DNA from: Chiloscyllium plagiosum
Lineage: Eukaryota
Assembly (NCBI RefSeq): GCF_004010195.1
Contig: NC_057755.1
Span: 4,330,032-4,363,013, forward strand
DNA length: 32,982 nt
Direction of reading: 5' to 3'
Shown: positions 1 through 28,339 of the stretch, piece after piece
How positions within the stretch are numbered: the first letter of the stretch is position 1
Layout: every line of letters starts with the position of its first letter
Translations under genes and position numbers: made by a program
The notes under the pieces: generated by a model
Seen by the model: the letters and a program-made list of their open reading frames with translations, nothing else
Databases searched by the model: none
Told to the model about the DNA's origin: nothing

Positions 1-2080
1 GAACTTCAGCTCTTAGATCTGGTCTATCCTTTTCCATCATTATTTTAAATCTAATAGAATTATGGTCTCTGGCCCCAAAGTGCACCCCCACTGACACCTC
101 AGTCACCTGCCCTTCCTTATTTCCCAAGAGTAAGTCACGTTTTGCACCTTCTCTCGTAGGCGCATTCACATACAAAATCAGAAAATTGTCTTGTACGCAC
201 TTAACAAATTCATCTCCATTTGAACCCTTACCATTATGGCAGTTGCAGTCTATGTTTGGAAAGTTAAAATTCCATCCGAAAACCACCCGATTATTCTTAC
301 AGATCGCTGAGATCTCCTTACAAGTTTGTTTCTCAATTTCCCTCTGACTATTAGGGAATCTATAATACAATTCCAATAAGGTGATCGTCCCTCTCTAATT
401 TCTCAGTTCCACCCAAATAACTTTCCTGGATGTATTTCTGGAACTATCTTTCCTTAACACAGCTGTAATGCTATCCCTGATCAAAAATGCCACCACCCCC
501 TCCTCTCTTGCCTCCCTTTCTATCCTTCCTGCGGCATTTGTATCCTGGAACATTAAGTTTCCAGTCCAGCCCATCCCTGAGCCATGTTTCTGTAATTGCT
601 ACGATATCCCAATCCCATGTTTCTAACCATGCCCTGAGATCGTCTGCCTTACCTGTTGGGCCCCTTGCATTGAAATAAATGCAGTTTAATTTATTAGTAA
701 TACCTTGTCCCTGCCTGCCCTGAATGTTTGACTCGCTTCTGTTCTCAATTGTACCAGTATCAGATTGATCTCGTTCCTCACTGTCTGCCTGGGCCCCACC
801 CCCCCAACTTACTAGTTGGAATCCTCCCGAGCAGCTCGAGCAAATTTCCTTGCCAGTACATTAGTCCCCTTCTAATTGAGGTGCAATCCGTCCTTCTTTT
901 ACAGGTCACTTCCACTCCAAAAGAGATTCCAATGATCCAAAATTGCGAATCCATCTCCCCTGCACCAGCCCCTCAGACATGCATTCATCTGCTCTATTCT
1001 CCTATTCCTGACTTCACGAGTTCGGTGTACTGGGAGTAATTCAGATATTACTACTCTTGAGGGCCTCCTTTTTAAATTTATGCCTAACTCCCTGTAATGT
1101 CCCTTTAGAATCTCAATCTTTTCCCTTCCTATCTCGTTTGTTCCAATGTGTGCAATGACCTCCTGCGGCCCCCTCTCTCCCTTGAAAACACTCTGCACCC
1201 TCTCTGAGGCATCCTTGATCCTAGCAGCAAGGAAGCAACACACCATTCTTACTTTTCGTTGCTGGCCACAGAAGCATCTGTCTATACCTTGGACGAGAAT
1301 GTCCCCTAACACAATCGATCTCTTGTAAACCGACGTACCATCATTGCATTTGAGCCAGTCTGGATCTTAGAAACTTGACGGTTAATGCTGCATTCCTCTG
1401 AGGATCCATCACCCCTGACATTTTTAAAAACAGTATACTTGTTTGAAATGGGGATCGACACAGAAGGCTCCTAAACTACCTACCTACCTGAGTTATCTTT
1501 CCTGGAGTTACTCCATCTGTGTGACCGTATCTGTGACTTTTCTCCCTTCCTACAACTGCCATCCATCACACCCCCTTGCTCTTATAAATTCCTCATTTTC
1601 TCTCCAACGATCCAATCCATCTGATTGAGTTCACAACCAATGCATTTATTGCAGATATAATCTGCAAATACACGTAAACTCTCCCTAAACCACCACAATT
1701 GACAAGAACAGCGTATCACTGAACTAAAGGTCATTTTTATTCTTTTTTCAATACAATGACCAAGAAAATAGCCCATTCTCGTCCCTCTACAAAACACCAC
1801 TCCAGGCTAACTTAATACTTATGGCTTATATTCTTAAGTTTAAACAAGAGTCATATTTTAATACAACATATTATCAAAAAAGAACCCAGTTAACTCGCTA
1901 CTGCAAAGTCACTGTACGGCCACACTTAAAATATTCACTTATCGGTTTATGTGCTGTGACCCCTCCCAAAAAGGTCCCTCCAAGTTCAGCAGCGAATTTC
2001 GCTGTTTGTTCATTTTCCCAGACCACTCTGACGTCCAGCGATACATGGATTCAAACAGTAAAGACAGTCACTGTGCAGAT
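1..2080 (-). mobile_element. CR1-clade LINE, 5' portion (5'UTR, ORF1 with Cys-rich N-terminus and SGNH esterase domain, start of ORF2 APE endonuclease); decayed, runs off the window edge
   Basis: Minus-strand translations MVCCFLAARIKDASERVQSVFKGERGPQEVIAHIGTNEIG (esterase GxN block of CR1 ORF1) and CSCQLW..RE....DYICNKC. Paralogous to 17768-19850. Confidence 0.9.
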
Positions 2081-2093
2081 ACATTGTGGTGAA

Positions 2094-2157
2094 GTCTCTC
2101 TCTCTCTGTCTGTCCCTCTCTCTCTCTCTCTCTCTCCCTCTCTCTCTCTCTCTCTCC
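2094..2157. repeat. (CT)n microsatellite
   Basis: Directly visible. Shorter version in the paralog at ~19860-19892. Confidence 0.95.
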
Positions 2158-2609
2158 TGCACTGACCTCACCTTGTATTTCCTTTGTCTGTTCCTGTCCC
2201 TTTTCCAAGTGCTATTGGTTTCAATTAATTTTCCAAAGTTCCGAAACAACGCAACAGCATACAAAAAAGTGATTGTAGCTCCTGGAATTTGAGGAAATCA
2301 CCTCCAACACCTCAAATGCCTCAAAAAATGAGCAACTTGTTACTGACAGAAATTGTTCCCATCCTTGAACTTTGATTACCCAGAGAGATTTCACAAATGA
2401 GAATGTGGACAATATACAGTAGTGATGAAGTGTAGAGGTGATGAAACCTTCACTGGACTTTTCTTATTGGTATTCTTTCAATAAAATATGGTTCGAGATG
2501 TGAACTGAGAACTGTTTGCGGAGAGTAACTTGTGGCCTTACAGGCAGCTTGTGGGAAAAGGAACAGACTAAACAATCTTTGTTTGTTTGTGAAGCCACCA
2601 TTTGAAGGT

Positions 2610-3010
2610 CCTCAATTCCTGAAGCAGTCCATGTTCAAATAGTGCAAGACCTGGACAATGTTCTTGCAGCATGACCATCTCGAGCAAGGTCCTTGTGTTT
2701 CAATGGCATTATCAATATTACGTTCCCGACAGTTACCATTGATCAGAAATTGAACAGGCGTAGCCAAACAAATCCTGTGTGTCCAACAGCAGTTCAGATG
2801 CTGGGAATCCTGCAAAGAGTAACTTACTGCTGAGCTCTTCCCATTTCCTCTTGGCCAAAGCTTGCTCAGCATCAGCAAGGCATAAGTTGGGAGTGTGATG
2901 AAGCTCTCTCTACTTGCCTGGATGAATACACCTCCAACAACACTCAAGAGAATTGTCCTGATGCAGAACAGAGCAGCCCCTGGATTTGACCCATATCCAC
3001 AAACACTCAT
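2610..3010 (+). mobile_element. Old LINE ORF2 C-terminal fragment (CR1/L2-like family)
   Basis: MKLSLLAWMNTPPTTLKRIVLMQNRA resembles MVEHSPFAEMSEAATTLKKLDTIRDK at 23002, which follows an RT remnant. Confidence 0.55.
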
Positions 3011-3759
3011 CCTTCCACAATCAATGCTCATTGTGTCATATGAGATCTCCTGCAGCTTCTCACTTGGCATTGAAGCGATATTCTGGGTAGTTTCATCGAT
3101 TTTATTTGTCTGCCTCCAGTCCACTCAGACTCTCTGATGGAGGAGGGTATTGTACACTTTCGGACATTCAGAGTGACTTTGACATGCGATGAGTGTATGA
3201 TGGTGGATCTATGGGGTTGGGGCGCAGTGGCTTTCTTTCTGAAATAATAAATAAAATCTTCTGTCCGAACGATGGTTTTGTTGTTTAAGTGAAAAGTAAA
3301 GCATCAGATTTGGAAAATTAACATCATCTCCATTTGTATTTTTTGAATCTTGAAGGCAGTGCCCAAGACAAGAGCATTTCCTTGTATCGTCTTGGCTGAC
3401 ACGGTCTGCTCGGTAAATACAGTGTTGAGAAACTCTTTCAGTCAGTCCTTACGAAGGAGAAATAGTTTTTCCCCTGAACTCAGAAGCGAGTATTTCAGAA
3501 ACAAGAAAAAGCAGCTGCTCAGTTCCATCACAGGTTTCTTGTCCCTCCATTAATTGGAGATAACAGAAGCCCTCTCTGTCCAGTCCCCATCCCAACAAGC
3601 CCAACAGGATCCTAAAGCAGAGCCTGGTCTTCAGTTCTCTCGGATTTTCCCTGTCATTGGCTCCATACCTCCCTCCGTTGTGACCATTGCTGATTGGTGT
3701 GCAGTGTCCACTCCACAGTAAAAGGATCTACAAACGGGCAGATTCCATCAAAACCCTGC

Positions 3760-4560
3760 CCCACCCGCAAATGAATCTGGGAGCTGGACTATGAGGAAGC
3801 TGATGGATAACACCAGCACCAATAGACCTGAATGATACACTGCTGCCATCGCCCAGCATTACAAAATGGTCATCACCGCCGTGAGTGGGATATGACTGGC
3901 AGGAGAAAGGCAACTTAAAGAAAAAGATGGCGGGTATACCTTTTTCTGGAAAAGCAAGCACAGGACATTGTCTCAATGGGATCGGCTTCACCACAACAAA
4001 TAAATTGGTCAGACCTTCCAACAAATCCCCTGTGGTGTAAATGAGCTCCTCATGACCCTCTGACACACCCTGGACCAGAAGCAGTCCTCTCAGCAGTCAG
4101 TGCCTCTGCGCTGAATCGAGACACAATGGAGAAGACAAAATATTCATTTAACACGAGCCTCGAACTATCGCTATCCCACTGAAGGAAATTTACCTCTGGC
4201 AGTGTTTCACAGCCGACCTGATGATGACAAAGTTACCTGAGTGACAGAGTGCCCACAGCATCTGTTCTACAAGAAACGCCTCCCCAGTCAGCAGCTCTGT
4301 GGAGACCCTCAGTGAGAATAACGGGAGATCCAGGATCTCCGAGATTGCAAACGTGAGGTAGTCCTGAACCGGCATCTCCACCATAACTCCAGCAAAAGGA
4401 AACAAGCGGAAACGCTACTGCAGTCTGAGGTGAAACAAAAAAGCCACGGCCTAAAGAATAGATGATGGGTGGAGAGAGTCAGCAGGCGAGTCCGTGATTC
4501 ACTGACAGACAACAACCTGCTCAGTGGCACCACTCAGCTCCTGACCTCATTCCAGCCTTA
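3760..4560 (+). mobile_element. RTE-clade LINE remnant (APE endonuclease region)
   Basis: Manual translation GERQLKEKDGGYTFFWKSK ... GVNELLMTL, typical of RTE/BovB-like endonuclease. Many stops and frameshifts. Confidence 0.75.
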
Positions 4561-4599
4561 GTCCTAACATGGACGAAAAAAGCTGAATTCCAGAGATGG

Positions 4600-5037
4600 A
4601 GTGAGGCTGACTGTACTTAACTTCAAGCATGCATATGGCCTGGTGTGGCTTGAAGGAGCCTGAGCAAATCTGGACGCAATGGAAATCGGGGGATCTCTCC
4701 ACTGAATGGAGTCATCCCTGGCAGAAAAGAAGAAAGTTGTGGTTCTTTGAGGTCAGTCACCACAGCTGCAGGGCATCTCTGTCCTCAAAGGAGTGTCTTA
4801 GGCCAAACCATCTTCGGTAATTTCATCAATGGACTCCTCTCCATCACAGGGTCAGACATGGGGATATTAGCTGATGTTTACACTGTGTTCAGCAGTATTT
4901 GCGACTACTCAGATACTGAAGTAGTCCTTATCCAAATGCAGTGAGACCGGGGTAATATCCAGGCTTGGAATGAAAAGTGGTAAATCGCATACATGACACA
5001 AAAATGCCAGACAGTGATCAACTCTAACAACAGAGAA
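4600..5037 (+). mobile_element. Old LINE RT fragment, cut by assembly gap
   Basis: PQRSVLGQTIFGNFINGL...GILADVYT is a degenerate PQGSVLGP.LF..FINDL...ADD RT motif. Confidence 0.75.
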
Positions 5038-5537: not shown

Positions 5538-6836
5538 CAAGGGGGCAGTGTTATAGTAATGCTATTTTGTCCAATCAATCTGACGCTGTTCAAGATGTTT
5601 CGCTCATGCCAATAAAGCTGATACTGTTTCTAAAGTAGTGGGTAAGTATATGCAGCTGCCAAGTAGGCCGGCTTTCACAGCAAAATTCTGATCCCATTGG
5701 GTCCCCAGCAAAACGCGGTGAGGCACAGAATAAGGACGGGTATGCCAGCTCTGGGTAAGGTACAGAAATCACCAGTGAATGAGACTATCTGTTCAGTGCC
5801 AATTCACAATGTAATGGTTGATTTATCTATTGCTTACTCACTGTAAGCAGGTTTACTGTTTGAATCATTTTCCATATTGTTTAGAAATTTGGAAGTAATT
5901 TTCAAATGACCATTTCTGAAATGATAAAGGCACTTTATATTAAAATATACTACTGACTGAATTATCAAGTGATTTGAGTTCATACATAGACACTAAGACT
6001 AAATGTCTTTGCTTTGTGTTTGCAGCTTATCTGAATGCACACTAGTTGATTTGATTTATCTTTGGACGGGGCTGTTAGATGTAAGGAGGAATGTCCGGCT
6101 GAACTATTACCTTCAATTATACATTTGACAGTGAACAGTAATGGTTTATAATTTTAAGACTGTGCCAATGTCCAAATTCAAGGTTAGATCAATATTAGAA
6201 AATGTCAGTGTGGTTTGAAAGCTTTGTGTCATGTTACTATAATTTGGGGACAGCATTGCCCACCAGCTACTCATCGCCAACTTTTCTGCTCAAAATGACC
6301 ATCTGGTTGCTACACTGAATTCTAAATACTGTTAACTACAGCTGTAGGTCGGGCCATTCGCTTGGGCACGAAGTTGACGTATGATTTTAAAGAGAATACA
6401 ATATATTGCGGAACTAATCTAAATTTTAGGTAAAACTGATGTTTTTCGCAGCAAACCTTCGAAGACTATTACCTCTTAGCAAAGCTGGCTTTCTAAAAAT
6501 AGGATTGTTTAATTCGCCCATGCCAGGGCTCCTCCATATAAAGTAAGAAAATAATGGGTAGGAAGGGAATCTCTGGTGCAAAGTTTAGAATGAATGAGCC
6601 TTTTGCCAGTGTGAGCGATATATTTACTCAAGTGGGCTACATGAGTTTGATTAAGTAGAGAATTATTTATTTCAAAATTGCTCTTAAGACTTCTAGCCTG
6701 CTGATGGGCACACATTATGGCCTCAAATAGGGTACTCCCACGATATTCAAACCAGAATATAGGTGAGTCCTACTACATTAGTTTGTGTTACTGCTTTGCT
6801 GCTGCATATTTTAATTGAGGATGTTTATATTGTATA

Positions 6837-7566
6837 AACTTATATACAAGGAGGGAATGGTTTATACTTTATTACAATGGACACTCCACGGCCTCATACC
6901 CTGATGGGAAGGAACCCTCCAGGTCGTCCTCACCACCCCAACTGTTGCTTAGGTCGCAGAACGTTCTGGCTGAGTCCATCTCCATCATTGCAAGGTCATC
7001 AGAAAAGCCACTTGCACGCGGGATGGAAGAGGAGAGATAATATAGATCGAACTTGCTCGGCTGTGTGGACTTGCCATTGCCAGCTTTGGAGCACAAGAAG
7101 GGACAGTTTACCTGTGCGATCCTGAGCAACCAGAGACTGTGTATCATCTCTGCCAGGAAGATGTCCTTGTGTGCCAAGAGACTGAATGTTACCAAGAATG
7201 ACTAATGCAGTGGTCAACTGCATCAAAAAGATTGACCAGTTCATTTACAGAACAAATCTAAATGGTCTTTACCCTCTAAAGGTGGTGTGTGCCAGTTTAA
7301 TTTCATTTGTACTATGGGCATCCCTGGTCAGCCATGTCCCCTTTTAGATAGATCATGCAGTAAAAGAGGAAAGGTGGGATGCGATCTTTCACTAACAATT
7401 TGTTTGTCGAAACCCATAATAACATATTTGGAGAGGTTGAAGTTACGCCTTTACTTCAGCAATAGACTCCCTGACTCTTTTCTCCCTTCTAAATCCTATC
7501 ATGGGGGTATCGAATAGTTCTAAAGTATTTACAGGATTATGGACATCCTCCAATAAATCCGCAATA
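6837..7566 (+). mobile_element. Endogenous retrovirus, partial copy 1 (integrase C-terminus and 5' env), cut by gap
   Basis: 6741-7566 is nearly identical to 7691-8516. Contains the degenerate WEG...VVLTTPT...VHLHHCK motif at 6905-6994. Confidence 0.88.
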
Positions 7567-7786
7567 NNNNNNNNNNNNNNNNNNNNNNNNNNNNNNNNNN
7601 NNNNNNNNNNNNNNNNNNNNNNNNNNNNNNNNNNNNNNNNNNNNNNNNNNNNNNNNNNNNNNNNNNNNNNNNNNNNNNNNNNNNNNNNNNCGATATTCAA
7701 ACCAGAATATAGGTGAGTCCTACTACATTAGTTTGTGTTACTGCTTTGCTGCTGCATATTTTAATTGAGGATGTGTATATTGTATA

Positions 7787-7960
7787 CACTTATATACAAG
7801 GAGGGAATGGTTTATACTTTATTACAATGGACACTCCACGGCCTCATACCCTGATGGGAAGGACCCTTCCAGGTCGTCCTCACCACCCCAACTGTTGCTT
7901 AGGTCGCAGAACGTTCTGGCTGAGTCCATCTCCATCATTGCAAGGTCATCAGAAAAGCCA
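7787..7960 (+). pseudogene. pol: Retroviral pol remnant: integrase C-terminal GPY/F region
   Basis: 7849-7944 translates P*WEGPFQVVLTTPTVA*VAERSG*VHLHHCK, matching the gamma/epsilon-like consensus PRWEGPY/FQVLLTTPTAVKV....WIH.SHCK. Confidence 0.92.
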
Positions 7961-7986
7961 CTTGCACGCGGGATGGAAGAGGAGAG

Positions 7987-9759
7987 ATAATATAGATCGA
8001 ACTTGCCCGGCTGTGTGGACTTGCCATTGCCAGCTTTGGAGCACAAGAAGGGACAGTTTACCTGTGCGATCCTTAGCAACCAGAGACTGTGTATCATCTC
8101 TGCCAGGAAGATGTCCTTGTGTGCCAAGAGACTGAATGTTACCAAGAATGACTAATGCAGTGGTCAACTGCATCAAAAAGATTGTCCAGTTCATTTACAG
8201 AACAAATCTAAATGGTCTTTACCCTCGAAAGGTGTTGTGTGCCAGTTTAATTTCATTTGTACTATGGGCATCCCTGGTCAGCCATGTCCCCTTTTAGATA
8301 GATCATGCAGTAAAAGAGGAAAGTTGGGATGCGATCTTTCACTAACAATTTGTTTCTCGAAACCCATAATAACATATTTGGAGAGGTTGAAGTTACGCCT
8401 TTACTTCAGCAATAGACTCCCTGACCTCTTTTCTCCTTCTAAATCCTATCATGGGGGTATCGAATAGTTCTAAAGTATTTACAGGATTATGGACATCCTC
8501 CAATAAATCCGCAATACCCTATCCCAATTGCTGCAATAGTAAGGGATGGGGGTGCACGGATTGGAGTGTAACTATGTAAAATTGCCTAAAATTATCCCCT
8601 GTGCTATGCCTAAATGTATCAGTTGTCACTGTTTCCCGGAAGGACCACACATTCCTTCAGGAGGAATGAGTCTCTATTACCTCTGGTATTCAAATTCTTT
8701 GTGGGGTATTTTACCACCACCAACTTCATTATGATACACCTAATTGCACTAATATTTTCCCCGTTATTGGATGGGTAGAACCATTCTGCGATGTCGATCA
8801 CGTTTCTTATCAAGAGACCCACCTCATTCGACTGAATGATTTCCAGCCTTAATGTTCGGGACCAAACTATATAATCAAGGATTACCCAGGTACCTCAGGA
8901 AGTCACAAAGATAGGCCCGCTTCTGATTGGGAAGGTCACTCCATTATCTATACTTAACCTGGATATTATGATTCAGTTATAGTAAGGCATCTTGTCCTGA
9001 ATATAGCAAGTACTCCACATGTTGTAGCTGTAGAAGCATTATTTCCAAGTCCTGTTCCCTGTCCAATTACCTGGCACCGAGATTCAAATTCCCGTGTCAA
9101 ACTTTCAGTTTCTCCTGAGTTTTGTGCAGAATGGAAGGATCCAAAGTTTCTATCAAATAGTAAAACTCACTCATTAACATATGCAGCACTTAGTGTTCTT
9201 TCCGTTAGACGGTCTTCAGGAGTTATTAGTCATCAAAACATTTGTGGACCCACAATCTCATGAAATGAGACAATTGCTTCCTAATCGAAGTAAGGGTCGT
9301 GCTTTCAGTATTGTGCCTATATACCCAACAAAACCTGCTATGCTCTCGATTACATTATTGTGAAGGAAGGTGGCGTTTGCATCATAGTCCAAGGAAAGTG
9401 CATCATGGGGTCACTAACTTTATCGAAAACATTACTGGACAAATAGATATCATCCGCACTTCTGTCAACCAAATGAATGAAGGTGCAGGGTGGGGAGATT
9501 GGGGTTTTGGTTTATGCGACAAAGGGCTTATCAATATGGCTATGTATGCTGCTATTGTTCATTTGGTCATTTTGTTAGTATTGCTATTGATCAGTGTATT
9601 ATTGCTAAAATATTAATTTATATTGACAACATTGGTTTCACCCAGAACATGCTAATTCTCCACTTTGATGATGATGCGGAAGCATCATCGCCGGTCCCTG
9701 ATTCCTCTTCAGACGAAGAGAAAGGATTGCAGTCTTTCACTGCCATAGAATTGGATTAA
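7987..9759 (+). pseudogene. env: Retroviral env pseudogene (SU + TM) with filovirus-GP2/ASLV-like TM
   Basis: Signal-peptide-like II*IELARLCGLAIASFGA. Decayed furin site RVKL|SVS (9093-9104). ICGPTIS*NET (9240-9272). TQQN/(C)YALDYIIVKEGGVCIIVQGKC (9323-9401). NITGQID. Hydrophobic anchor MAMYAAIVHLVILLVLLL. Multiple stops and frameshifts; start position is inferred. Confidence 0.92.
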
Positions 9760-9802
9760 TTTGGTCCATGCATTTATGGTGTAGTCATTGAATGATCAAC
9801 GC

Positions 9803-9814
9803 AGGGAAGGAGGA
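9803..9814 (+). promoter_or_regulatory. Polypurine tract (PPT)
   Basis: agggaaggagga about 45 nt after the env C-terminal stop. Copy 3 reads agggaatgagga. Confidence 0.7.
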
Positions 9815-9816
9815 TC

Positions 9817-10479
9817 TATAATTTGAATTTAGCTGTTGTCAGATGCAACAAGTATATGTAGATTTTTATTAACTACGAAATAGCTTTACAATTTAAAATA
9901 ACACAACATAATGGCTAAAAGTAAGAACTTGACTCTGTGAACTTGTGCTGCTGCTTTGTTGAGTTAATCAAAATAGAAGATAAGTGATTATAATGGATTT
10001 TCATAATATGAATTATAAGACAGTGATTTCGTATTTGAGGTAAACTTGAACTAGTAAATATGCGTACAACAATCTGTTTCCCTTGAAATGTCATTGGATT
10101 AGCCTGTCGTCAATCATGTCACTATATTACAGTCGATTGGACTTTTCTGCTAATTAAGATACTTTTCCCAGGAAATATCATTGGATTAACCTGCTGTAAA
10201 TGATGTCACCTTATTAGATATGATTGGTCTTTTCTTGTAATTCAGGCTGTACTATCTATAAAAAACATAAGTAATAAGTAATTGTCAAATGTATTTGCAC
10301 TATTTCTCTACGGAGCACAGAAACGTTTAACCTCCGTGTTGCTTGGCAAATCTACCCCAGGCTACTTCTATTTATTAATTTATTAAACGTGTAACCTTGC
10401 TTTAAACAGATTGTACTCCTCGTCATTCTTTTGACCAGTCCTAAAACCAAGAGGGCCTGCAACGGGGTATAAATCTTCA
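9817..10479 (+). repeat. Putative 3' LTR
   Basis: Follows the PPT. Contains an 87-bp tandem repeat with ATTGG boxes, TATAAAA at 10257 and ATTAAA at 10382. Ends in CA at 10478-10479 where CR1 homology begins. No 5' LTR in the window to confirm the ends. Confidence 0.6.
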
Positions 10480-12129: not shown

Positions 12130-12702
12130 TCAAAACATTCCAACGTCCTTTAAAGCTGAGTGAGAGAAAGAATTCTTAATAAAACACTCATAATGTTGAT
12201 GAATCAGGCATTTTACACACACACATTCAAGCACACGCATGACACATATGCCCTTACACGTAAATTATTCTTCTACCTTTCTACTTAATACATTACTTTG
12301 CACAGGAAAACAGTTCCCTCGGCTTATCAATGATTCCTTCAGGCTTCCCACTGAAAAAGATACACGAACCCATCTCAATCAGAGTCAACCTAAATGGTTT
12401 CACAATTGTTCACAGTCAATCCAATTAAATGAAATTTTCAGCCCCATTATGTCTACATTCCCATTTGGTAGGAATCAAATAATGAGAAATTAATATTACA
12501 CTCAATGTTAAATAACAAAACAGAAAACCCTTATTTTGTTTATTGGAATCCGCATCACCACCTCTGAAAAGTCTTATCATGATGACTTCCGGAACTTCAG
12601 TTTAATGTGTAATTGGAATTTTGCCTCTAATACTATCACGTTTGGATTCGAAATATTCAGATACTTCCAAAGTATTATGATGGATTCAGGTCATCTTATC
12701 AT

Positions 12703-12876
12703 GATTAGAGTGGCGCTGGAAGAGCACAGCAGGACAGGCAGTATCCGAGGAGCAGAAAAATCGAACTTTCGGGCAATAGCCCTTCGTCCTGATGAAGTGC
12801 TTTTGCCTGAAACATCGATTTTTCTGCTCCTCAGATGCTGCCTGACTTGCTGTACTTTTCCATCACCACTCTAATC
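12703..12876. mobile_element. ~174 bp palindromic Penelope-derived element with hammerhead-like core
   Basis: Left arm gattagagtggcgctggaagagcacagcagg... pairs with right arm ...ctgtacttttccatcaccactctaatc. Centre ctgatgaagtgcttttgcctgaaacatc. Confidence 0.75.
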
Positions 12877-12989
12877 TTGACTCTAATCACCAAAATCCGC
12901 ATCACCACCTCTGAAAAGTCTTATCATGATGACTTCCGGAACTTCAGTTTAATGTGTAATTGGAATTTTGCCTCTAATACTATTATTGT

Positions 12990-13078
12990 CAATTGTTGTA
13001 AAAAAAACCATTGTTTCACTAATGTCCTTTTGGGGAAAGAAAACTACTGTCTGTACCTGGTGTGGTCTACATGTGACT
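12990..13078 (+). mobile_element. Fragment of an old SINE (SacSINE/DeuSINE-like)
   Basis: aaaccattgtttcactaatgtccttttgggg...acctggtgtggtctacatgtgact resembles the recalled shark DeuSINE core. Related decayed pieces near 30570-30660 (-) and 32200-32290. Confidence 0.45.
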
Positions 13079-13478
13079 GGTCTGTTTGTTGGAGGTCAGC
13101 CATTTAAGCTCCAGGACTTCACTGCTGGCGTTCCTCAAGAATGTGTCTGAGGCCTAATTGTGTTTAGTGACTGAATAACTGCCACCCCCTCAATCATAAC
13201 GTCATAAATCAGAATCCGTTAACACAATTGGTTGTACGACTGATGTGAGATGTAGAGAAGCAAGGTGATCTTTAGGTTCAAATTGCCAACTGCCGTCTAT
13301 CTCTCTCTCTCTCTCTCTCTCCCTCTCCCNNNNNNNNNNNNNNNNNNNNNNNNNNNNNNNNNNNNNNNNNNNNNNNNNNNNNNNNNNNNNNNNNNNNNNN
13401 NNNNNNNNNNNNNNNNNNNNNNNNNNNNNNNNNNNNNNNNNNNNNNNNNNNNNNNNNNNNNNNNNNNNNNNNNNNNNN

Positions 13479-14512
13479 CCTCGGCTTATCAATGATTCCT
13501 TCAGGCTTCCCACTGAGTAAATGCACGAACCCATCTCAATCAGATGCAACCTAAATGGTTTCACAATTGTTCACAGTCAATCCAATTAAATGAAATTTTC
13601 AGCCCCATTATGTCTACATTCCCATTTGGTAGAAATCAAATAATGAGAAATTAATATTACACTCAATGTTAAATAGCAAAACAGAAAACACTTATTTTGT
13701 TTATTGGAACAAAAGTATCACGTTTGGGTTCGAAATATTCAGATACTTCCAAAGTATTATGATGGACTCAGGTCATCTTATCATGATGAGAGTGGCGCTG
13801 GAAGAGCACAGCAGGACAGGCAGTATCCGAGGAGCAGAAAAATCGAAGTTTCAGGCAATAGCCCTTCGTCCTGATGAAGTGTTTTTGCCCGAAACATCGA
13901 TTTTTCTGCTCCTCAGATGCTGCCTGACCTGCTGTGCTTTTCCATCACCACTCTAATCTTGACTCTAATCTCCAAGATCCGCATCACCACCTCTGACAAG
14001 TTTTATCATGATGGCTTCCGGAACTTCAGTTTCATGTGTCATTGGAATTTTGCCTCTCATACTATTATTGTCAATTGTTGTCAAAACCCATTGTTTCACT
14101 AATGTCCTTTTGGGGAAAGAAAACTACTGTCTGTACCTGGTGTGGTCTACATGTGACTGGTCTGTTTGTTGGAGGCCAGCCATTTAAACTCCAGGACTTC
14201 ACTGCTGGCGTTCCTCAAGACTGTGTCTGAGGCCTAATTGTGTTTAGTGACTGAATAACTGCCACTCCCTCAATCATAACGTCATAAATCAGAATCCGTT
14301 AACACAATTTGTTGTACGAATGACTTGGGATGTAGAGAAGCAAGGTAAACTTTAGGTTCAACTTGCCAACTGCCGTGTCTCTCTCTCTCTCCCTCGCCCT
14401 CTCTCTCTCTCTTTCCCTCTCCCCTCTCTCTCCCTCTCTCTCAGCTTCTTTCTCTCTCCCCTTCTATCATTCTCTCTCCCCCTATATCCCCCTCTCTCTC
14501 CCTCTCTCCCTC
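13479..14512 (+). repeat. ~1 kb tandem unit, copy B, ending in CT-rich tract
   Basis: Colinear with 12317-13329. Confidence 0.95.
13785..13958. mobile_element. Second copy of the palindromic Penelope-derived element
   Basis: Same arms. Centre ctgatgaagtgtttttgcccgaaacatc. Confidence 0.75.
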
Positions 14513-15560: not shown

Positions 15561-18500
15561 ATAGTCATAGAGTCATAGAGATGGACGGCATGGAAACAGA
15601 CCCTTCGGTCTAACCCGTCCATGCCGACCAGATATTCCAACCCAATCTCGCCGCATCGCCAGCACCTCTCCCATAATCTTCCAAACCCTTCCTATTCATA
15701 TACCCATCCAAATGCCTCTTAAATGTTGCAATCGTGCCAACCTCCACCACTTCCTCTGGCAGCTCATTCCATACACGTACCACCCTCTGTTTGAAAACTT
15801 TGGTGCTTATGTCTCTTTTATGTCTTTCCCCCTCACCCTGAACTGTATCCACTAGTTCTAGATTCCCCAACCCCAGGGAAAAATCTTTATCTATTTGCCC
15901 TATCCATGCCCCTCATGATTTTTTAAACCACCACAAGGTCAACCCTCCGCTTCTGACGCTCCAGGGAATACAGCCCCAGCCTGTTCAGCCTCTCCTTATA
16001 GCTCAAATCCTCCATCCTGGCAACATGCTTGCGGGTTTTTTTCTGAACCCTTTCAAGTTTTACAACTTCTTTCCGATAGGAAGGAGACCAGAATTGCATG
16101 CAATATTCCAACAGTGGTCGAACCAATGTCCTGTACAACCGGGACATGTGGTCCTAAATGCTGTACTCAAAACTCTGACCAATAAAGGAGACCATACCAG
16201 ACGCCTTCTTCACTCTCCTATCTACCTGCGACTCGAGTTTCAAGGAGCAATGCAACTGCACTCCAAGATCTCTTTGTTCAGCAACACATCCTAGGACCTT
16301 ACCATTAAGTGTATAAGTCGTGCCAAGATTTGTTTTCCCAAAATTCAGCATCTCTTATTTATTTGAATTAAAATCCATTTGCCACTTCTCAGCCAATTGG
16401 CCAATCTGTTCAAGATCCTGTTGTAACCTGAGGTAACTCTCTTCGCTGTTCACTACACCTCCAATTTTGATGTCATCTGCAAACGTACTAACTGTAACTT
16501 CTGCTCGCATCAAAATCATTTATGGAATTGACAAAAAGTAGACGAACCAGCACCGATCCATGCAGCACTCCACTGGTCACAGGCCTCCAGTCTGAAACAC
16601 AACCCTCCACCACCACCCTCTGTCTTCTACCTTTCAGCCAGTTCTGTGTGCAATGCCTCATGCCCCCGTGTATTCCGTGAGATCTCACCATTCCAATCAG
16701 TCTCCCATGTGGAACCCTATCGAACTACTTACTGAAAGTCCATATGGATCACGTCGACAGCTCTGCCCTCATCAATCCTCTTCGTTACTTCATCAAAAAT
16801 CTCAATCAATTTTGTGAGACATGATTTCCCACGCACAAAACCATGTTGACCATCCCTAATCAGTTTTTGCCTTTCAAAATACATGTACAACCTTTCCCTC
16901 AGGATTTATTCCAATAATTTGCTCACCACCGATGTCAGGCTCACTGGTCTATAGTTCCCTGGCTTGTCCTAACCATCCTTCTTAAATAGTGGCACCACGC
17001 AAGACAAACTCCAATCTTCTGGCACCTCATAAGTGACTATCGATGACACACATATCTCAGTAAGAGGCCCAGCAATCACTTCTCCAGCTGCCCATAGAGT
17101 TCTCGGGTACACCTGATTAGGTCCTGAGGATTTATCCACCTTTACCCGTTTCAAGACATCCAGTACTTCCTCCTCTGTTATATAGACATTTTGCAAGCTG
17201 TCACCATCTATTTCCCGATAGTCTATCTGTTCCATATCCTTTTCCACAGTATATACTGTTGCAAAATATTCATTTAGTATCCCCCCCACCCCACCCATTT
17301 TCTGCATCTCCACACAAACGCCGCCTTGCTGATCTGTGAGGGGGCCTATTCTCTCCCTAGTTTGCATTTTGTCCTTAATGTATTTGTAAAAACTCTTTGG
17401 ATTCTCCTTAATTCTATTTGCCAAAGGTATCTCATGTCCTCTTTTTGCACTTCTGATTTCCCTCTTAAGTATACTCCTGCTTCCTTTTTCCTCTTCTGAG
17501 GATTCACTCGATCTATCCTGTCCATACATTACATATGCTTTCTTCTTTTTCTTATTCAAACACTCAATTTCTTTAGTCATCAAGCATTCCCGAAAAGTAC
17601 CAGCCTTTCCTTTCCCCCTGACAGGAATATACTTTCTCTGGATTCTTGTTATCTCATTTCAGAAGGCTTCCCATTTCCAGCCGTCCTTTTACCTGCGAAC
17701 ATTTGCCCCCAGTCAGCTTTCGAAAGTTCTTGCCTAATACCATCAAAGATGGCATTTCTCCAATTTAGAACTTCAGCTCTTAGATCTGGTCTATCCTTTT
17801 CCATCATTATTTTAAATCTAATCGAATTATGGTCACTGGCCCCAAGGTGCACTCCCACTGACACCTCAGTCACCTGCCCTTCCTTATTTCCCAAGACTAA
17901 GTCACGTTTTGCACCTTCTCTAGTAGGTACATTCACATACAGAATCAGAAAATTGTCTTGTACGCACTTAACAAATTCGTCTCCATCTAAACCCTTAACA
18001 CTAGGGCAGTTGCAGTCTATGTTTGGGAAGGTTACAATTCCCTCCTATAACCACCCTATTATTCTTACAGATAGCTGAGATCTCCTTACTAGTTTGTTCC
18101 TCAATTTCCCTCTGACTATTAGGGGATCTATAATACAATTCCAATAAGGTGATCGTCCCTTTCTAATTCCTCAGTTCCACCCAAATAACTTTCCTGGATG
18201 TATTTCTGGAACTATCTTCCCTTAACACAGCTGTAATGCTATCCCTTATCAAAAATGCCACCACCCCCTCCTCTCTTGCCTCCCTTTCTATCCTTCCTGC
18301 AACATTTGTATCCTGGAACATTAAGCTTCCAATCCTGCCCATCCCTGAGCCATGTTTCTGTAATTGCTATGATATCCCAATCCCATGTTTCTAACCATGC
18401 CCTGAGTTCATCTGCCTTACCTGTTCGGCCCCTTGCATTGAAATAAATGTAGTTTAATTTATTAGTACTACCTTGTCCCTGCCTGCCCTGAATGTTTGAC

Positions 18501-19850
18501 TCGCTTCTGTTCTCAACTATACCAGTATCAGATTGATCTCTTTCCTCACTATCTGCCTGGGCCCCATCCCCCCAACTTACTAGTTGGAATCCTCCCGAGA
18601 AGCTCGAGCAAATTTCCTTACCAGTACATTAGTCCCCTTCTAATTGAGGTGCAATCCGTCCTTCTTTTACAGATCACTTCCACTCCAAAAGAGATTCCAA
18701 TGATCCAAAATTACGAATCCGTCTCCCATGCACCAGCCCCTCAGACATGCATTCATCTGCTCTATTCTCCTATTCCTGCCTTCACTAGTTCGGAGTACTG
18801 GGAGTAATTCAGATATTACTACTCTCGAGGGCCTCCTTTTTAAATTTATGCCTAACTCCCTGTAATGTCCCTTTAGAATCTCAATATTTTCACTTCCTAT
18901 CTCGTTTGTTCCAATGTGTGCAATGACCTCCTGCGGCCCCCTCTCTCCCTTGAAATCACTCTGCACCCTCTCTGAGGCATCCTTGATCATAGCACCAGGG
19001 AAGCAACACACCATTCTTACTTTTCGTTGCTGGCACAGAAGCGTCTGTCTATACCTTGGACTAGAGAGTCCCCTAACACAATCGATCTCTTGGAAACCGA
19101 CGTAGCCTCATTGCATTTGAGCCAGTTTAGATCTTTGAAACTTGACGGTTAATGCTACATTCCTCTGAGGATCCATCACCCCAAACAATTTCGAAAACAG
19201 TATACTTGTTTGAAATGGGGATAGCCACAGAAGGCTCCTGAACTACCTACCTGAGTTATCTTTCCTGGAGTTACTCCATCTGTGTGACCGTATCTGTGAC
19301 TTTTCTCTCTTCCTACAACTGCCATCCATCAGACCCCCTTGCTCTTGTAAATTCCTCATTTTCTCTCCAACGATCCAATCGATCTGATAGATTTTACAAA
19401 AAATGGCATATATTGCAGATATAAACTAGAAATGCACGTAAACTCTCCCTAAACTACCACAATCGACAAGAACAGCGTATCAGTCAACTAAAGGCCATTT
19501 TTCTTTTATTTATTCAATACAATGACCAAGAAAATAGCCCATTCTCGTCCCTCTAGAAAACATCACTCCAGGCTAAATTACTCCTTTTGGCTTATATTCC
19601 TAAGTTAAATCAAGAGACATATCTTAATACAACATATTATCAAAAAAGAACCAGTTAACTCGCTACTGCAAAGTCACTGTACGGCCAGACTTAAAATATT
19701 CACTTATCGGTTTATGTGCTGTGACCCCTCCCAAACAGGTTCCTCCAAGTTCAGTTGCGAATTTCGCTGTTTGTTCATTTTCCCAGACGCACTCTGATGT
19801 CCAGCGATACATGAATTCAAATAATAAAGACAGTAGCTGTGCAGATTCAT
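15561..19850 (-). mobile_element. Near full-length CR1-clade LINE (ORF1 esterase; ORF2 APE + RT), pseudogenised
   Basis: ORF1 esterase 18667-19014. Endonuclease PTREGAKRDLVLGN...GASDHNSIRF. KSSGPNQVYPRTL. SGVLHGSVL. FADD at ~16472-16483. LYRTLVRPLLEYCMQFWSP. 3' tail (ctctatga)n at 15561-15580. Confidence 0.95.
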
Positions 19851-19859
19851 TGTGGTGAA

Positions 19860-19892
<33 letters not shown>

Positions 19893-22792
19893 CTGCACTG
19901 ACCTCACCTTGTATGTCCTTTGTCTGTTCCTGTCCCTTTTACAAGTGCTGTTGGTTTCAATTAATTTTCCAAAGTTCCAAAACAACGCAATAGCATATAA
20001 AACATTAATTGCTGCTCCTGGAATTTGAGGAAATCACCTCCAACACCTCAAATACCTCAAAAAAGGAGCAACTTGTTACTGACAGAAATTGTTCCCGTCC
20101 TTGAACTTTGATGACCCATGGAGATTTCACAAATGAGAATGTGGACAATATACCAGTAGTGATGAAGTGTAGAGGTGATGAAACCTTCACTGGACTTTTG
20201 TTATTGGTATTCTTTCAATAAGATGTGGTTCGAGATGTGAACTGTGAACTTGTGGCCTTCCAGGCAGCGTGCAGGAAAAGGAACAGACCAAACAATCTAT
20301 GTTTGTTTGTGAAGCCACCATTTGAAGGTCCTCAATTTCTGAAGAAGTCCATGTTCAAATAGTGCAAGACCTGGACAATGTTCTTGCAGCATGACCATCT
20401 CGAACAAGGTCCTTGTGTTTCAATGGCATTATAAAGATTAACTTCCCGGCAGTTAGCATTGATCAGATATTGAACAGGCGGAGCCAAACAAATCCTGTGG
20501 GTCCAACAGCAGGTCAGATGCTGGGAATCCTGCAGAGAGTAACTTACTGCTGAGCTCTTCCCATTTCCTCTTGGCCAAAGCTTGCTCAGCATCTGCAAGG
20601 CATAAGTTGGGAGTGTGATGAAGCTCTCTCTACTTGCCTGGATGAATGCACCTCCAACAACACTCAAGAGAATTGTCCTGATGCAGAACAGAGCAGCCCC
20701 TGGATTTCACTCATATCCACAAACACTCATCCTTCCACCATCAATGCTCATTGTGTCATGTGAGATCTCCTGCAGCTTCTCACTTGGTTTTGAAGCTATA
20801 TTCTGGGTAGTTTCATCGATTTTATTTGTCTGCCTCCAGTCCACTCAAACTCTCTGATGGAGGAGGGTATTGTACACTTTCAGAGATTCAGAGTGACTTT
20901 GACATGCGATGGGTGTATGATCGAGGATCTATGGGGTTGGGGTGCAGTGGCTTTCTTTCTGAAATAATAAATACAATCTTCTGTCCGAACGATGGTTTTG
21001 TTGTTGAAGTGAAAAGTAAAGCATCAGATTTGGAAAATTAACATCATCTCAATTTGTCTATTTAAGGATCTTGAAGGCAGTGCCCAAGACAAGAGCATTT
21101 CCTGGTATCGTCTTGGCAGACACGGTCTGCACGGTAATTATAGTGTTGAAAATTTCTTTCAGTCACTCCTTAAGTAGGAGAAATATTTTTTTCCCCTGAA
21201 CTCAGAAGCGAGTATTTCAGAAACAGGAAAAGCAGCTGCTCAGTTCTATCACAGGTTTCTTGTTCCTCCATTAATTGGAGATAACAGAAGCCCTCTCTGT
21301 CCAGTCCCTATTCCAACAAGCCAAACAGGATCCTAAAGCAGAGACTGGACTTCAGTTCACTCAGATTTTCTCTGTCATTGGCTCCAGACTTCCCTCCGTT
21401 GTGACCATGTGGTAATTGGTGTGCAGTGTCCACTCCACAGTAAAAGGATCTACAAACGGGCAGATTCCATCAAAACTCTGCCCCACCCGCAAATGAATCT
21501 GGGAGCTGGACTATCAGGAACCTGATGGATAACACCAGCACCAAAAGACCTGATTGATACACTGCTGCCATCGCCCAGCATTACAAAATTGACATCACCG
21601 CCGTGAGTGGAATATGACTGGCTGGATATAGGCAACTTAAAGAAAAAGATGGCGAGTATACCTTTTTCTGGAAAAGCAAACACAGGACATTGTCTCAATG
21701 GGATCGGCTTCACCACAACAAATAAATTGGTCAGACATTCCAACAAATCCCCTGTGGGGTAAAGGAGCTCCTCATGACCCTCTGACACACCCTGGGTCAG
21801 AAGCAGTCCTCTCAGCTGTCAGTGCCTCTGCGCTAAATCTAGACACAATGGAGAAGACAAAAGACTCATTCCACACCAGCCTCGAACTATTGCTATCCCA
21901 CCGAAGGAAATGTTTCTCAGGCAGTGCCTCACAGCCGACCTGATGATGACTAAGATACCTGAGTGACAGAGTGCCCACAGGATGTGGTCCACCCTAAATT
22001 CCTCCCCAGTCAGCAGCTGTGTGGAGACCCTCAGGCTCTCAAATAGGAAACTCCAGGATTGGCCCAGTGAGAATAACGGGAGATCCAGGATCTCCGAGAT
22101 CGCAAACGTAAGGTAGTTCTGAATTGGCAGCTCCACCGTAACTCCAGCAAAAGGAAACAAGCAGAAACGCAACTGCAGTCTGAGGTAAAGCAAAGAAGCC
22201 ACGATCTAAAGAATAGATGATGAGTGGAGAGAGTCAGCAGGAGAGTCCGTGATTCACTGACAGACAACAACCTGCTCAGTGACACCACTCAGCTCCTGAC
22301 CTCATTCCAGCCTTAGTCCAAACATTAACGAAAAAAGCTGAATTCCAGAGGTGGGGTGAGGCTGACTGTACTTAACTTCAAGGCTGCATATGGCCTGGTC
22401 TGGCTTCAAGGAGCCTGAGCAAAACTGGATGCAATGGAAATCGGGGGAACTCTCCACTGGATGGAGTCATCCCTGGCAGAAAAGAAGAAAGTTGTGGTTC
22501 TTTGAGGTCAGTCACCACAGCTGCAGGGCATCTCTGTCCTCAAAGGAGTGTCTTAGCCCAAACCATCTTCGGAAATTTCTTCAATGGACTCCCCGCCATC
22601 ACAGGGTCAGACATGGGGATATTAGCTGATGATTACATTGTGTTCAGCAGTATTTGCGTCTACTCAGGTACTGAAGTAGTCCTTATCCAAATGCAGTGAG
22701 ACCGGGGCAATATCCAGGCTTGGGATGAAAAGTGGTAAACCGCATACATGACACATAAATGCCAGACAGTGATCAACTCTAACAACAGAGAA
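17768..22792 (+). repeat. Segmental duplication block A' (direct copy of 1-5037)
   Basis: See block A. Confidence 0.97.
21470..22320 (+). mobile_element. RTE-clade LINE remnant (paralog of 3760-4560)
   Basis: QLKEKDGEYTFFWKSK; colinear with block A. Confidence 0.75.
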
Positions 22793-26037: not shown

Positions 26038-28339
26038 CAAGGGAAACAGATTGTTATATGCATGTTTACTAGTTCAAGTTTACCTCAAATACGAAATCAC
26101 TGTCTTATAATTCATATTATGAAAATCCATTATAATCTCTTATCTTCTATTTAGCATAACTCAACAAAGCAGCAGCACAAGTTCACAGAGTCAAGTTCTT
26201 ACTTTCTGCCATTATGTTGTGTTATTTTAAATTGAAAAGCCATTTCGTAGTTAATAAAAATCTACATATACTTGTTGCATCTGATAACAGGTAAATTCAA
26301 ATTATAGATCCTCATTCCCTGCGTTGGTCATTCAATGACTACACCATAAATGCATGGACCAAATTAATTCAATTCGATGGCAATGAAAGACTGCAATCCT
26401 TTCTCTTCCTCTGAAGAGGAATCAGGGACAGGCGATGATGCTTCCACATCATCATCAAAGTGTAGAATTAGCATTTTCTGGGTGCAACCAATGTTGTCAA
26501 TAGGAATTAATATTTTAGCAATAATACACTTATCAACAGCAATACTAACAAAATGACCAAATGAACAATAGCAGCATACATAACCATATTGATAAGCCCT
26601 TTGTAACATAAACCAAAACCCCCATCTCCCCACCCTGCACCTTCATTCATTTGGTTGACAGAAGTGCGGATGATATCTATTTGTCCAATAATGTTTTCGA
26701 TAAAGTTAGTGACCCCCATGATGCACTTTCCTTTGACTATGATGCAAACGCCACCTTCCTTCACAATAATCTAATCGAGCGCATAGCAGGTTTTGTTGGG
26801 TAAATAGGCACAATTCTGAAAGCACGACCCTAACTTCTATTAGGAAGCAATTGTCTAATTTCATGAGATTGTGGGTCCATAAATATTTTGATGACTAATA
26901 ACTCCTGAAGACCGTCTATCGGAAAAAACACTAAGTGCTGCATATGTTAATGAGTGAGTTTTACTATTTGATAGAAACTTTGGATCCTTCCATTCTGCAC
27001 AAAGGACAGGAGAAACTGAAAGTTTGACACGGGAATTTGAATCTCGGTGCCAGGTAATTGGACAGGGAACAGGAGTTGGAAATGATGCTTCTACAGCTGC
27101 AACATGTGGAGTACTTGCTATATTCAGGACAAGATGCCTTACTATAACTGAATAATAATATCCAGGTTAAGTATAGATAATGGAGTGACCTTCCCAATAA
27201 GAAGCGGGTCTATCTTTGTGACTTCCTGAGGTACCTGGGTAATCCTTGATTACATAGTTTGTTCCCGAACATAAAGGCTGGAAATCATTCAGTCGAATGA
27301 GGTGGGTCTCTTGATAAGAAACGTGATCGACTTCGCAGAATGGTTCTACCCATCCAATAACTGGGAAAATATTAGGGCAATTAGGTGTATCATAATGAAG
27401 TTGGTGGTGGTAAAATACCCCACAAAGAGTTTGAATACCAGAGGTAATAGAGACACATTCCCTCCTGAAGGAATTTGGGGTCCTTCCGGGAAACAGTGAC
27501 AACTGATACATTTAGGCATAGCACAGGAGATAATTTTAGGCAATTTTACATAGGTACACTCCAATCCGTGCACCCACATCCCTTACTATTGCAGCAATTT
27601 GGATAGGATATTGCGGATTTATTGGAGGATGTCCATAATCCTGTAAATACTTTAGAACTATTCGATACCCCCATGTTAGGATTTCGAAGGAGAAAAGAGG
27701 TCAGGGAGTCTATTGCTGAACTAAAGGCGTAACTTCATCCTCTCCAAATATGTTATTATGGGTGTGGAGAAACAAATTGTGAGTGAAAGATCGCATCCCA
27801 CCTTTCCTCTTTTACTGCATGATCTATCTAAAAGGGGACATGGCTGACCAGGGATACCCATAGTACAAAACAAATTAAACTGGCACACAACATCTTTAGA
27901 GGGTAAAGGCCATTTAGATTTGTTCTGGAAATGAACTGGTCAATCTTTTTGATGCAGTTGACCACTGCATTCGTCATTCTTGGTAACATTCAGTCTGTCG
28001 GCACACAAGGACATCTTCCTGGCAGAGATGATACACAGTCTCTGGTTGCTCAGGATCGCACAGGTAAACTGTCCTTTCTTGTGCTCCAATGCTGGCAATG
28101 GCAAGTCCACACAGCCGGGCAAGTTCGATCTATATTATCTCTCCTCTTCCACCCCCATTTGCAAGTGGCTTGTCTGATGAGCTTGCAATGATGGAGATGG
28201 ACTCAGCCAGAACGTTCGGCGACATAAGCAACAGTTGGGGTGGTGAGGACGACCTGGAAGGGTCCTTCCCATCAGGGTATGAGGTCGTGGAGTGTCCATT
28301 GTAATAAAGTATAAACCATTCCCTCCTTGTATATAAGTG
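26038..28339 (-). mobile_element. Endogenous retrovirus, copy 3 (IN C-terminus, env, PPT, first ~270 bp of LTR; cut by gap)
   Basis: Reverse complement of 7787-10085. Integrase motif at 28182-28271. Confidence 0.92.
26364..28140 (-). pseudogene. env: Retroviral env pseudogene, second full copy
   Basis: IEVRVVLSELCLFTQQN/(C)YALD*IIVKEGGVCIIVKGKCIMGVTNFIENIIGQIDIIRTSVNQMNEGAGWG...LINMVMYAAIVHLVILLVLLL. Confidence 0.92.

Follow-up and report, generated by a model that had tools for sequence, protein, structure and literature searches.

A broken retroviral envelope with a filovirus-like TM subunit in the shark Chiloscyllium plagiosum, and its possible kinship with lizard and snake-virus envelopes

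Introduction

Filovirus-like fusion ectodomains are already known from retroelements of cartilaginous fish. Nino Barreat and Katzourakis (2024; PMC11521997) described 14 such loci and built an argument about filovirus exchange on them. They name Chiloscyllium, Scyliorhinus, Amblyraja, and Leucoraja as hosts, and their table adds Rhincodon; the best viral matches of the loci are Tapajos, Mengla, Marburg, Ebola, Lloviu, and CAS viruses. In their tree, the shark-ray group is sister to the mammalian filoviruses (posterior 0.83), and Tapajos virus groups with lizard elements (1.0). Their table shows the lizard envelope Mab2 matching Tapajos in two segments, one of which is N-terminal. The available portion of PMC11398700 repeats this result.

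Retroviral envelopes of cartilaginous fish have been described more broadly as well. Chen et al. (bioRxiv 10.1101/2021.11.23.469661), as far as the accessible text goes, report that 6 cartilaginous fish carry endogenous retroviruses (ERVs) whose Env is gamma-type, with nine clades and a CXnC subtype. A survey of env genes in 40 chondrichthyans is outlined in the accessible part of PMC12813294. According to the excerpts of a 2013 paper (PMC3758190), the third cysteine of the CX6CC motif makes the SU-TM bond in gamma-type Env, and retroviruses with a cysteine-flanked fusion peptide were known only from birds.

Here we analyze 32,982 nucleotides from the shark Chiloscyllium plagiosum (the window). 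A sequence-only reading of the window had described positions 9093–9500 as the filovirus-GP2-like TM subunit of a shark ERV, from a possibly undescribed chondrichthyan lineage. We conclude that 9093–9500 is very probably the TM of a dead env from a class I ERV family of sharks and rays, of the published filovirus-like kind. The lineage is chondrichthyan, since its relatives come from sharks and a ray, but judging from the accessible part of PMC11521997, it cannot be called undescribed. What may be new is that the shark family is closer to a snake filovirus (Tapajos) and to the lizard Env-Mab2 than has been reported.

Results

Two inverted proviral 3' ends

The window contains two inverted copies of a proviral 3' end: copy A on the plus strand (about 5538–10479) and copy B on the minus strand (28339–26038). 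The sequence-only reading had used both copies as joint evidence. They are not independent: they are 95.5% identical over 2302 nt and have lesions in common.

Copy A begins with a degraded 3' part of pol that ends in the integrase C-terminal domain (5538–6997, plus strand; blastn, 78–94% identity to the pol-side DNA of the genomic copies L023, L024, L026, and L029; Pfam MLVIN_C at about 6881–6997, E = 8e-4). This is the first copy of a duplicated stretch. Positions 6741–7566 and 7691–8516 form a direct repeat (98.4% identical) that flanks an N gap, and the sister copy L029 has this stretch only once, so the repeat is probably a gap-overlap assembly artefact. The integrase C-terminal domain that lies directly 5' of env is at about 7831–7947 (plus strand; MLVIN_C, E = 1.1e-5, 25.5 bits, which is below the curated cut-off of 29.2). 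It is followed by a broken SU with several stops and frame changes (7990–9104, plus strand; the start is approximate). Read in their different frames, pieces of this SU match a profile of the shark-clade SU (E = 2.9e-11), the clade protein P0002, and natural frames of L013 and L027.

The broken TM (9105–9756, plus strand), when read frame by frame, comprises an internal loop, HR1, an ISD-like stretch, a CX6C loop that lacks the final cysteine of CX6CC (9378–9401), HR2, a membrane anchor, and a tail. The peptide pieces that had been quoted are present in the implied frames. So are the two cysteines, at 9123 and 9243: separated by 39 other codons, they surround a putative internal fusion loop (9123–9245) and would form a disulfide. 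Downstream of env lie a purine-rich, PPT-like tract (9800–9809), at the same position as the tract before the 3' LTR of L016, and a 3' LTR with an internal tandem duplication (about 9810–10479; the end is approximate), which matches the paired LTRs of L013, L016, and L018. The gene thus sits behind an integrase and before a PPT and LTR, as had been claimed.

The TM of copy A is interrupted by a stop at 9261 and shifts frame near 9282, 9336, 9408, and 9558, and the joined reading of 9093–9500 passes through one stop and shifts frame three times. In a Pfam scan, the raw window frames had no env match. Copy B (26038–28339, minus strand) holds the integrase C-terminus (MLVIN_C, E = 2.9e-6), a broken env, and the start of the 3' LTR, which is cut by an N gap. 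Most of its TM is in one frame, and the second loop cysteine is absent there. We also considered a live or co-opted env gene at this locus, and we reject it.

Elsewhere in the window, 1–5037 and 17768–22792 form a direct repeat with 92–94% identity, which is part of a segmental duplication and which contains, as judged by eye, degraded pieces of a CR1-like LINE. Overlapping duplications surround an N gap at 12317–14407. A 182-nt imperfect palindrome at 12699–12880 and again at 13781–13962 is possibly a small DNA transposon.

The carrier and its genomic family

We searched the 3.56-Gb genome for env and took 20 ten-kilobase regions around the matches for study. The size of the family is seen in 139 env matches genome-wide (126 of 1131 candidates were scored), which are fragments and not a copy number. 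The proviral order can be read directly in L018, as an LTR (15–399), a gag zinc knuckle, protease, RT, RNase H, integrase, env, and the second LTR (9088–9490). Parts of the same order are found in L013, L016, L021, and L027. With an RT frame of L013, MLV-type RT scores 176 bits, foamy RT 101, and the next retroviral RT 43. On these scores we assign the carrier to the class I (gamma/epsilon-like) retroviruses, in agreement with the earlier claim of a retroviral carrier. The nearest named relatives of the shark-ray clade are from three sharks (Pristiophorus, Heterodontus, and Rhincodon) and one ray (Mobula).

The paired LTRs are 80.6% (L018), 88.1% (L022, partial), or 94.7% (L016) identical, so the insertions are old and spread in time. 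L003–L006 have 340–360 bp of host flank beyond the LTR in common (94–98% identity), and the deletion and the stop of copy A are also found in L001, L003, and L005. This common flank and these common lesions indicate that the local copies are segmental duplicates of one dead insertion. The window copies make no protein, and they descend from one insertion that was later multiplied by segmental duplication. In two more distant copies (L008 and L010), the in-frame stop in HR1 of the window copies is present and the deletion is absent, which suggests that an already defective lineage was amplified. At about 3.9–4.42 Mb of G000:C46, a cluster of env copies in both orientations (77–89% identical to copy B) suggests a repeatedly duplicated region.

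Anatomy of the TM

We took the anatomy of the TM from natural open-frame pieces of nine other genomic copies. The cleavage site is dibasic in four of six copies, without the upstream arginine of the canonical furin motif, and is degenerate in the window. Both loop cysteines are present in all six copies that cover the loop, with spacings of 43, 43, 43, 43, 39, and 46 residues; the spacing in four filovirus GPs is 44. The 39-residue spacing in the sequence-only reading is true of copy A, but it reflects a 12-nt deletion in window-type copies, and the family mostly has 43. The first 15 residues after the first cysteine are polar (KD −1.2 to −1.5), and hydrophobicity peaks at about loop position 20. 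By this hydropathy the family's TM lacks an MLV-type N-terminal fusion peptide, and the loop is internal, as proposed. Prolines are absent from the hydrophobic window in the shark clade (0 of 10 rows), versus two prolines in both filovirus rows, in a comparison of hydropathy and prolines whose L020 row is based on a wrong cysteine. An N-x-T site opens HR1 in all nine copies, and the ISD-like stretch of HR1 aligns without gaps.

The third cysteine of CX6CC is absent from both window copies, from all nine genomic copies, and from 12 of 12 clade relatives in the alignment, while CX6CC is present in 4 of 4 mammalian filoviruses. The shark-ray family thus lacks one motif of gamma-type Env in the strict sense, and its SU and TM are probably linked non-covalently. 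Its CX6C fits the CXnC subtype in the accessible text of Chen et al. The anamniote gamma-type Envs described there resemble the shark family in coming from cartilaginous-fish ERVs with class I pol and in having novel fusion peptides. The motifs of the shark-ray family may already be described in that preprint.

The avian gamma-type (ASLV-like) Env has a cysteine-flanked internal fusion peptide and an HR1 glycan site (PMC3758190, in the excerpts available), as does the shark TM. Unlike the shark family, it has CX6CC, a proline in the loop, a shorter loop, and a class II carrier, and it scores only 18 bits. The sequence-only reading had likened the loop to those of filoviruses and ASLV. This is right for a cysteine-bracketed internal loop but overstated, given that the family has no loop prolines and only CX6C in place of CX6CC. 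(A pocket mouse protein, P0068, has an ASLV-like TM with both the cysteine-flanked loop and CX6CC, which is the avian gamma-type outside birds.)

The ectodomains of PMC11521997 (its Fig 6) resemble the window family in host group, retroviral context, Ebola-like HR1-HR2, and best viral matches. The window family is very probably of the same kind, with the identity of the clade resting on host group and best matches. The fusion loop, the missing third cysteine, and the SU are not described in the accessible part of that account.

Likeness to filovirus GP2

The likeness to GP2 is beyond chance, as the sequence-only reading had supposed. When we compared the single natural frame of copy B (with X at stops) to the PDB (177,635 sequences), it matched filovirus GP with E = 6e-5, and Marburg/Ravn GP2 with E of about 3e-3, ahead of MLV p15 (E = 0.93). 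A profile built from the nine natural open-frame pieces matched filovirus GP with E = 1.5e-14. The order of PDB entries for the profile was filovirus GP2 (up to 57.5 bits), 4n21 (31.7 bits), which we take to be CAS virus GP2, syncytin-2 (27.3), MLV (22.6), and ASLV (18). This ranking is skewed towards filoviruses because the PDB contains few non-mammalian ERV Envs.

With filovirus GP2 as the top PDB matches, we considered that the gene might be an endogenous filovirus glycoprotein gene instead of a retroviral env. However, it sits between the integrase and the LTR of a class I provirus, the ranking is skewed as described above, and there is no similarity to filovirus GP1: the GP1 core (Pfam Filo_glycop) is absent from the window frames and from the clade relatives scanned. 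There is no negative-strand genome context either. The proviral context refutes this explanation, which is almost certainly wrong. Of the Pfam domains that the earlier reading had named as a check, the two other than Filo_glycop do occur in the retroviral env. Ebola-like_HR1-HR2 is present in 8 of 9 copies with E values no greater than 1 (the lowest being 2e-6), and 5 of the 6 clade relatives scanned exceed its curated cut-off; TLV_coat is present in 5 of 9 copies.

Other searches were less sensitive. A word-based homolog search with the raw frame of copy B gave no matches. A reciprocal search with the Tapajos TM found just four retroviral Envs, all of them weak matches, and Mab2 was not among them; a search of such low sensitivity cannot rank relatives. 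In the ESM Atlas, generic TLV_coat clusters came first and a filovirus cluster was at rank 11, with recognition below its threshold. A natural TM piece and P0003 were modelled as AlphaFold2 monomers with low confidence (pLDDT of 51 and 48). With these models, Foldseek against BFVD had no match at E up to 0.001, and the best VIA-align hits (Z = 6.8) were generic helical hairpins, tied with the retroviral fusion core 4jf3 (6.7). Neither the models nor the fold searches are used as evidence.

Relatives of the shark-ray envelope

Two views of its kinship have to be weighed. In the published topology, the shark-ray ectodomain is the sister group of the GP2 of Ebola, Marburg, Lloviu, and Mengla viruses; we think that this is rather unlikely. 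Alternatively, over the whole envelope, the shark-ray Env is closest to Mabuya Env-Mab2 (ATY46612.1) and the Tapajos glycoprotein (YP_010798909.1), which we judge to have about an even chance of being correct.

The TM profile favors the Mab2 and Tapajos relationship. Among the best 150 of 433 matches from 1.84 billion representatives, ranks 1–14 are the shark-ray clade, rank 15 is the Tapajos glycoprotein (84 bits), which is the best match outside the clade, and the first mammalian filovirus comes at rank 40 (57.5 bits), after 20 ordinary gamma-type Envs. The filovirus affinity that had been claimed is real as homology to GP2, but against this profile the best mammalian filovirus GP scores lower than these gamma-type Envs. 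Similarly, the mean identity in HR1-HR2 is 31.4% to 4 filoviruses, versus 36.8% to Tapajos and 31.3% to 36 gamma-type Envs, a figure that is biased upward because these Envs were picked by the same profile. On the side of the published topology, the clade protein P0003 shares 38% identity with a filovirus GP along 138 residues, and the loop lengths are similar (43 vs. 44). But the loop alone shows no similarity to filovirus loops (at most 1.2 bits). (Among the filovirus relatives, Lloviu is named by its record; we take P0044 to be Mengla, P0049 to be Marburg, and P0093 to be an ebolavirus, and in our analysis only their Pfam filovirus domains were seen.)

The motifs can be compared in the same way. 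Like the shark TM, mammalian filovirus GP2 (Ebola, Marburg, Lloviu, and Mengla) has a cysteine-flanked internal loop of similar length, a Cys-x6-N-x-T start of HR1, an ISD-like stretch, and HR2. It differs in having CX6CC and a proline- and aromatic-rich loop. Mab2 and Tapajos, like the shark family, have a cysteine-bracketed, proline-free loop and no third cysteine, although they have CX7C instead of CX6C and a loop of 37 residues, and the Tapajos glycoprotein is carried by a negative-strand RNA virus. A well-supported squamate clade (P0031, P0054, P0059, P0070, P0079, and P0145; those named are from Anolis and Pseudonaja) also has the bracketed loop without the third cysteine, and it has no SU similarity to the shark clade, so the loss of this cysteine may be convergent.

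The SU provides another comparison. A profile of nine clade SUs identified the SU of Env-Mab2 as the best of 85 non-clade targets, with 42.9 bits; the next target had 9.9 bits and the maximum of 500 shuffles was 7.9. The same profile scored only 5.3 bits against Tapajos GP1 (shuffle maximum 6.3), which is not significant and weakens the case for kinship with Tapajos. In pairwise comparisons, the Mab2 SU matched Tapajos GP1 (46–48 bits) and four of five clade SUs (14–28 bits; P0002, 4.5), but not two filovirus GP1s or an Anolis SU. The shark SU showed no similarity to filovirus GP1 in profile or pairwise comparisons, which counts against the published topology. SU similarity thus connects the shark family to Mab2, and Mab2 to Tapajos, without a direct shark-Tapajos match. 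A literature search on the shark-Mab2 SU link found none, which is not proof that it is unpublished. As a separate observation, the window at about 8050–8135 and P0002 at residues 21–51 have an extra cysteine-containing N-terminal part of SU, which precedes the core common to shorter shark Envs and is reminiscent of an added receptor-binding domain.

In trees, the shark-ray clade forms one branch, and the bootstrap counts for its sister group differ between the two alignments. (Both trees were built without reptarenavirus, true ASLV, MLV, percomORF, or Varanus sequences.) The core tree (88 columns and 68 rows, with 5 rows omitted as partial or redundant) recovered the clade with 93/90 support, but it leaves the deep branching order open, and its bootstrap had yet to stabilise. 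Sharks joined the mammalian filoviruses in 439 of 1000 bootstraps, and joined Tapajos and Mab2 in 122 of 1000, or in 480 when one long-branch row was included. The tree constrained to shark plus filovirus was 0.85 log-units better than the free tree (AU p = 0.516), and the posterior of 0.83 in the accessible part of PMC11521997 points the same way. The fusion-loop tree (125 columns, 28 rows with the cysteine loop) also has the shark-ray clade as one branch (91/87), and it places sharks with Tapajos and Mab2 in 749 of 1000 bootstraps, versus 2 of 1000 for sharks with filoviruses. However, the branch support for this placement is weak (75/74), and the AU p for shark plus filovirus is 0.195. The AU tests reject the shark plus mammalian-filovirus topology in neither tree. 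Finally, SU and TM can recombine, which counts against the Mab2 and Tapajos relationship.

Discussion

By analogy with other class I fusion proteins, the ancestral Env would have been cut at a basic site into SU, which would have bound a receptor, and TM. The internal loop, closed by a putative disulfide, would have inserted into the target membrane. HR1, with its N-glycan site, would then have trimerised, and HR2 would have packed back to form a six-helix bundle. With no third cysteine after CX6C, SU and TM probably acted without the usual inter-subunit disulfide.

We tentatively propose, at a little short of an even chance, that the shark-ray Env, the lizard Env-Mab2, and the Tapajos glycoprotein form one whole-envelope family, with a related SU, a proline-free cysteine-closed loop, and no cysteine for the SU-TM disulfide.

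The window locus itself contributes no more than one further dead copy of a published kind. The family does show that retroviruses of hosts well outside birds have a cysteine-flanked internal fusion loop and that such a loop can exist without the SU-TM disulfide cysteine. In the open question of how filoviruses acquired their fusion subunit, the sister group proposed in the literature is the shark ERV envelopes. The SU and fusion-loop characters of the family lie outside the short ectodomain and suggest a link to Mab2 and Tapajos. The published sister-group relationship is called into question by the SU and cysteine characters, and the topology becomes testable by sequence analysis. If the whole-envelope family is real, then the reptile filovirus capture would trace back to the shark elements as its deep source, the donor of the Ebola and Marburg GP2 would be open again, and the published three-capture tree would change.
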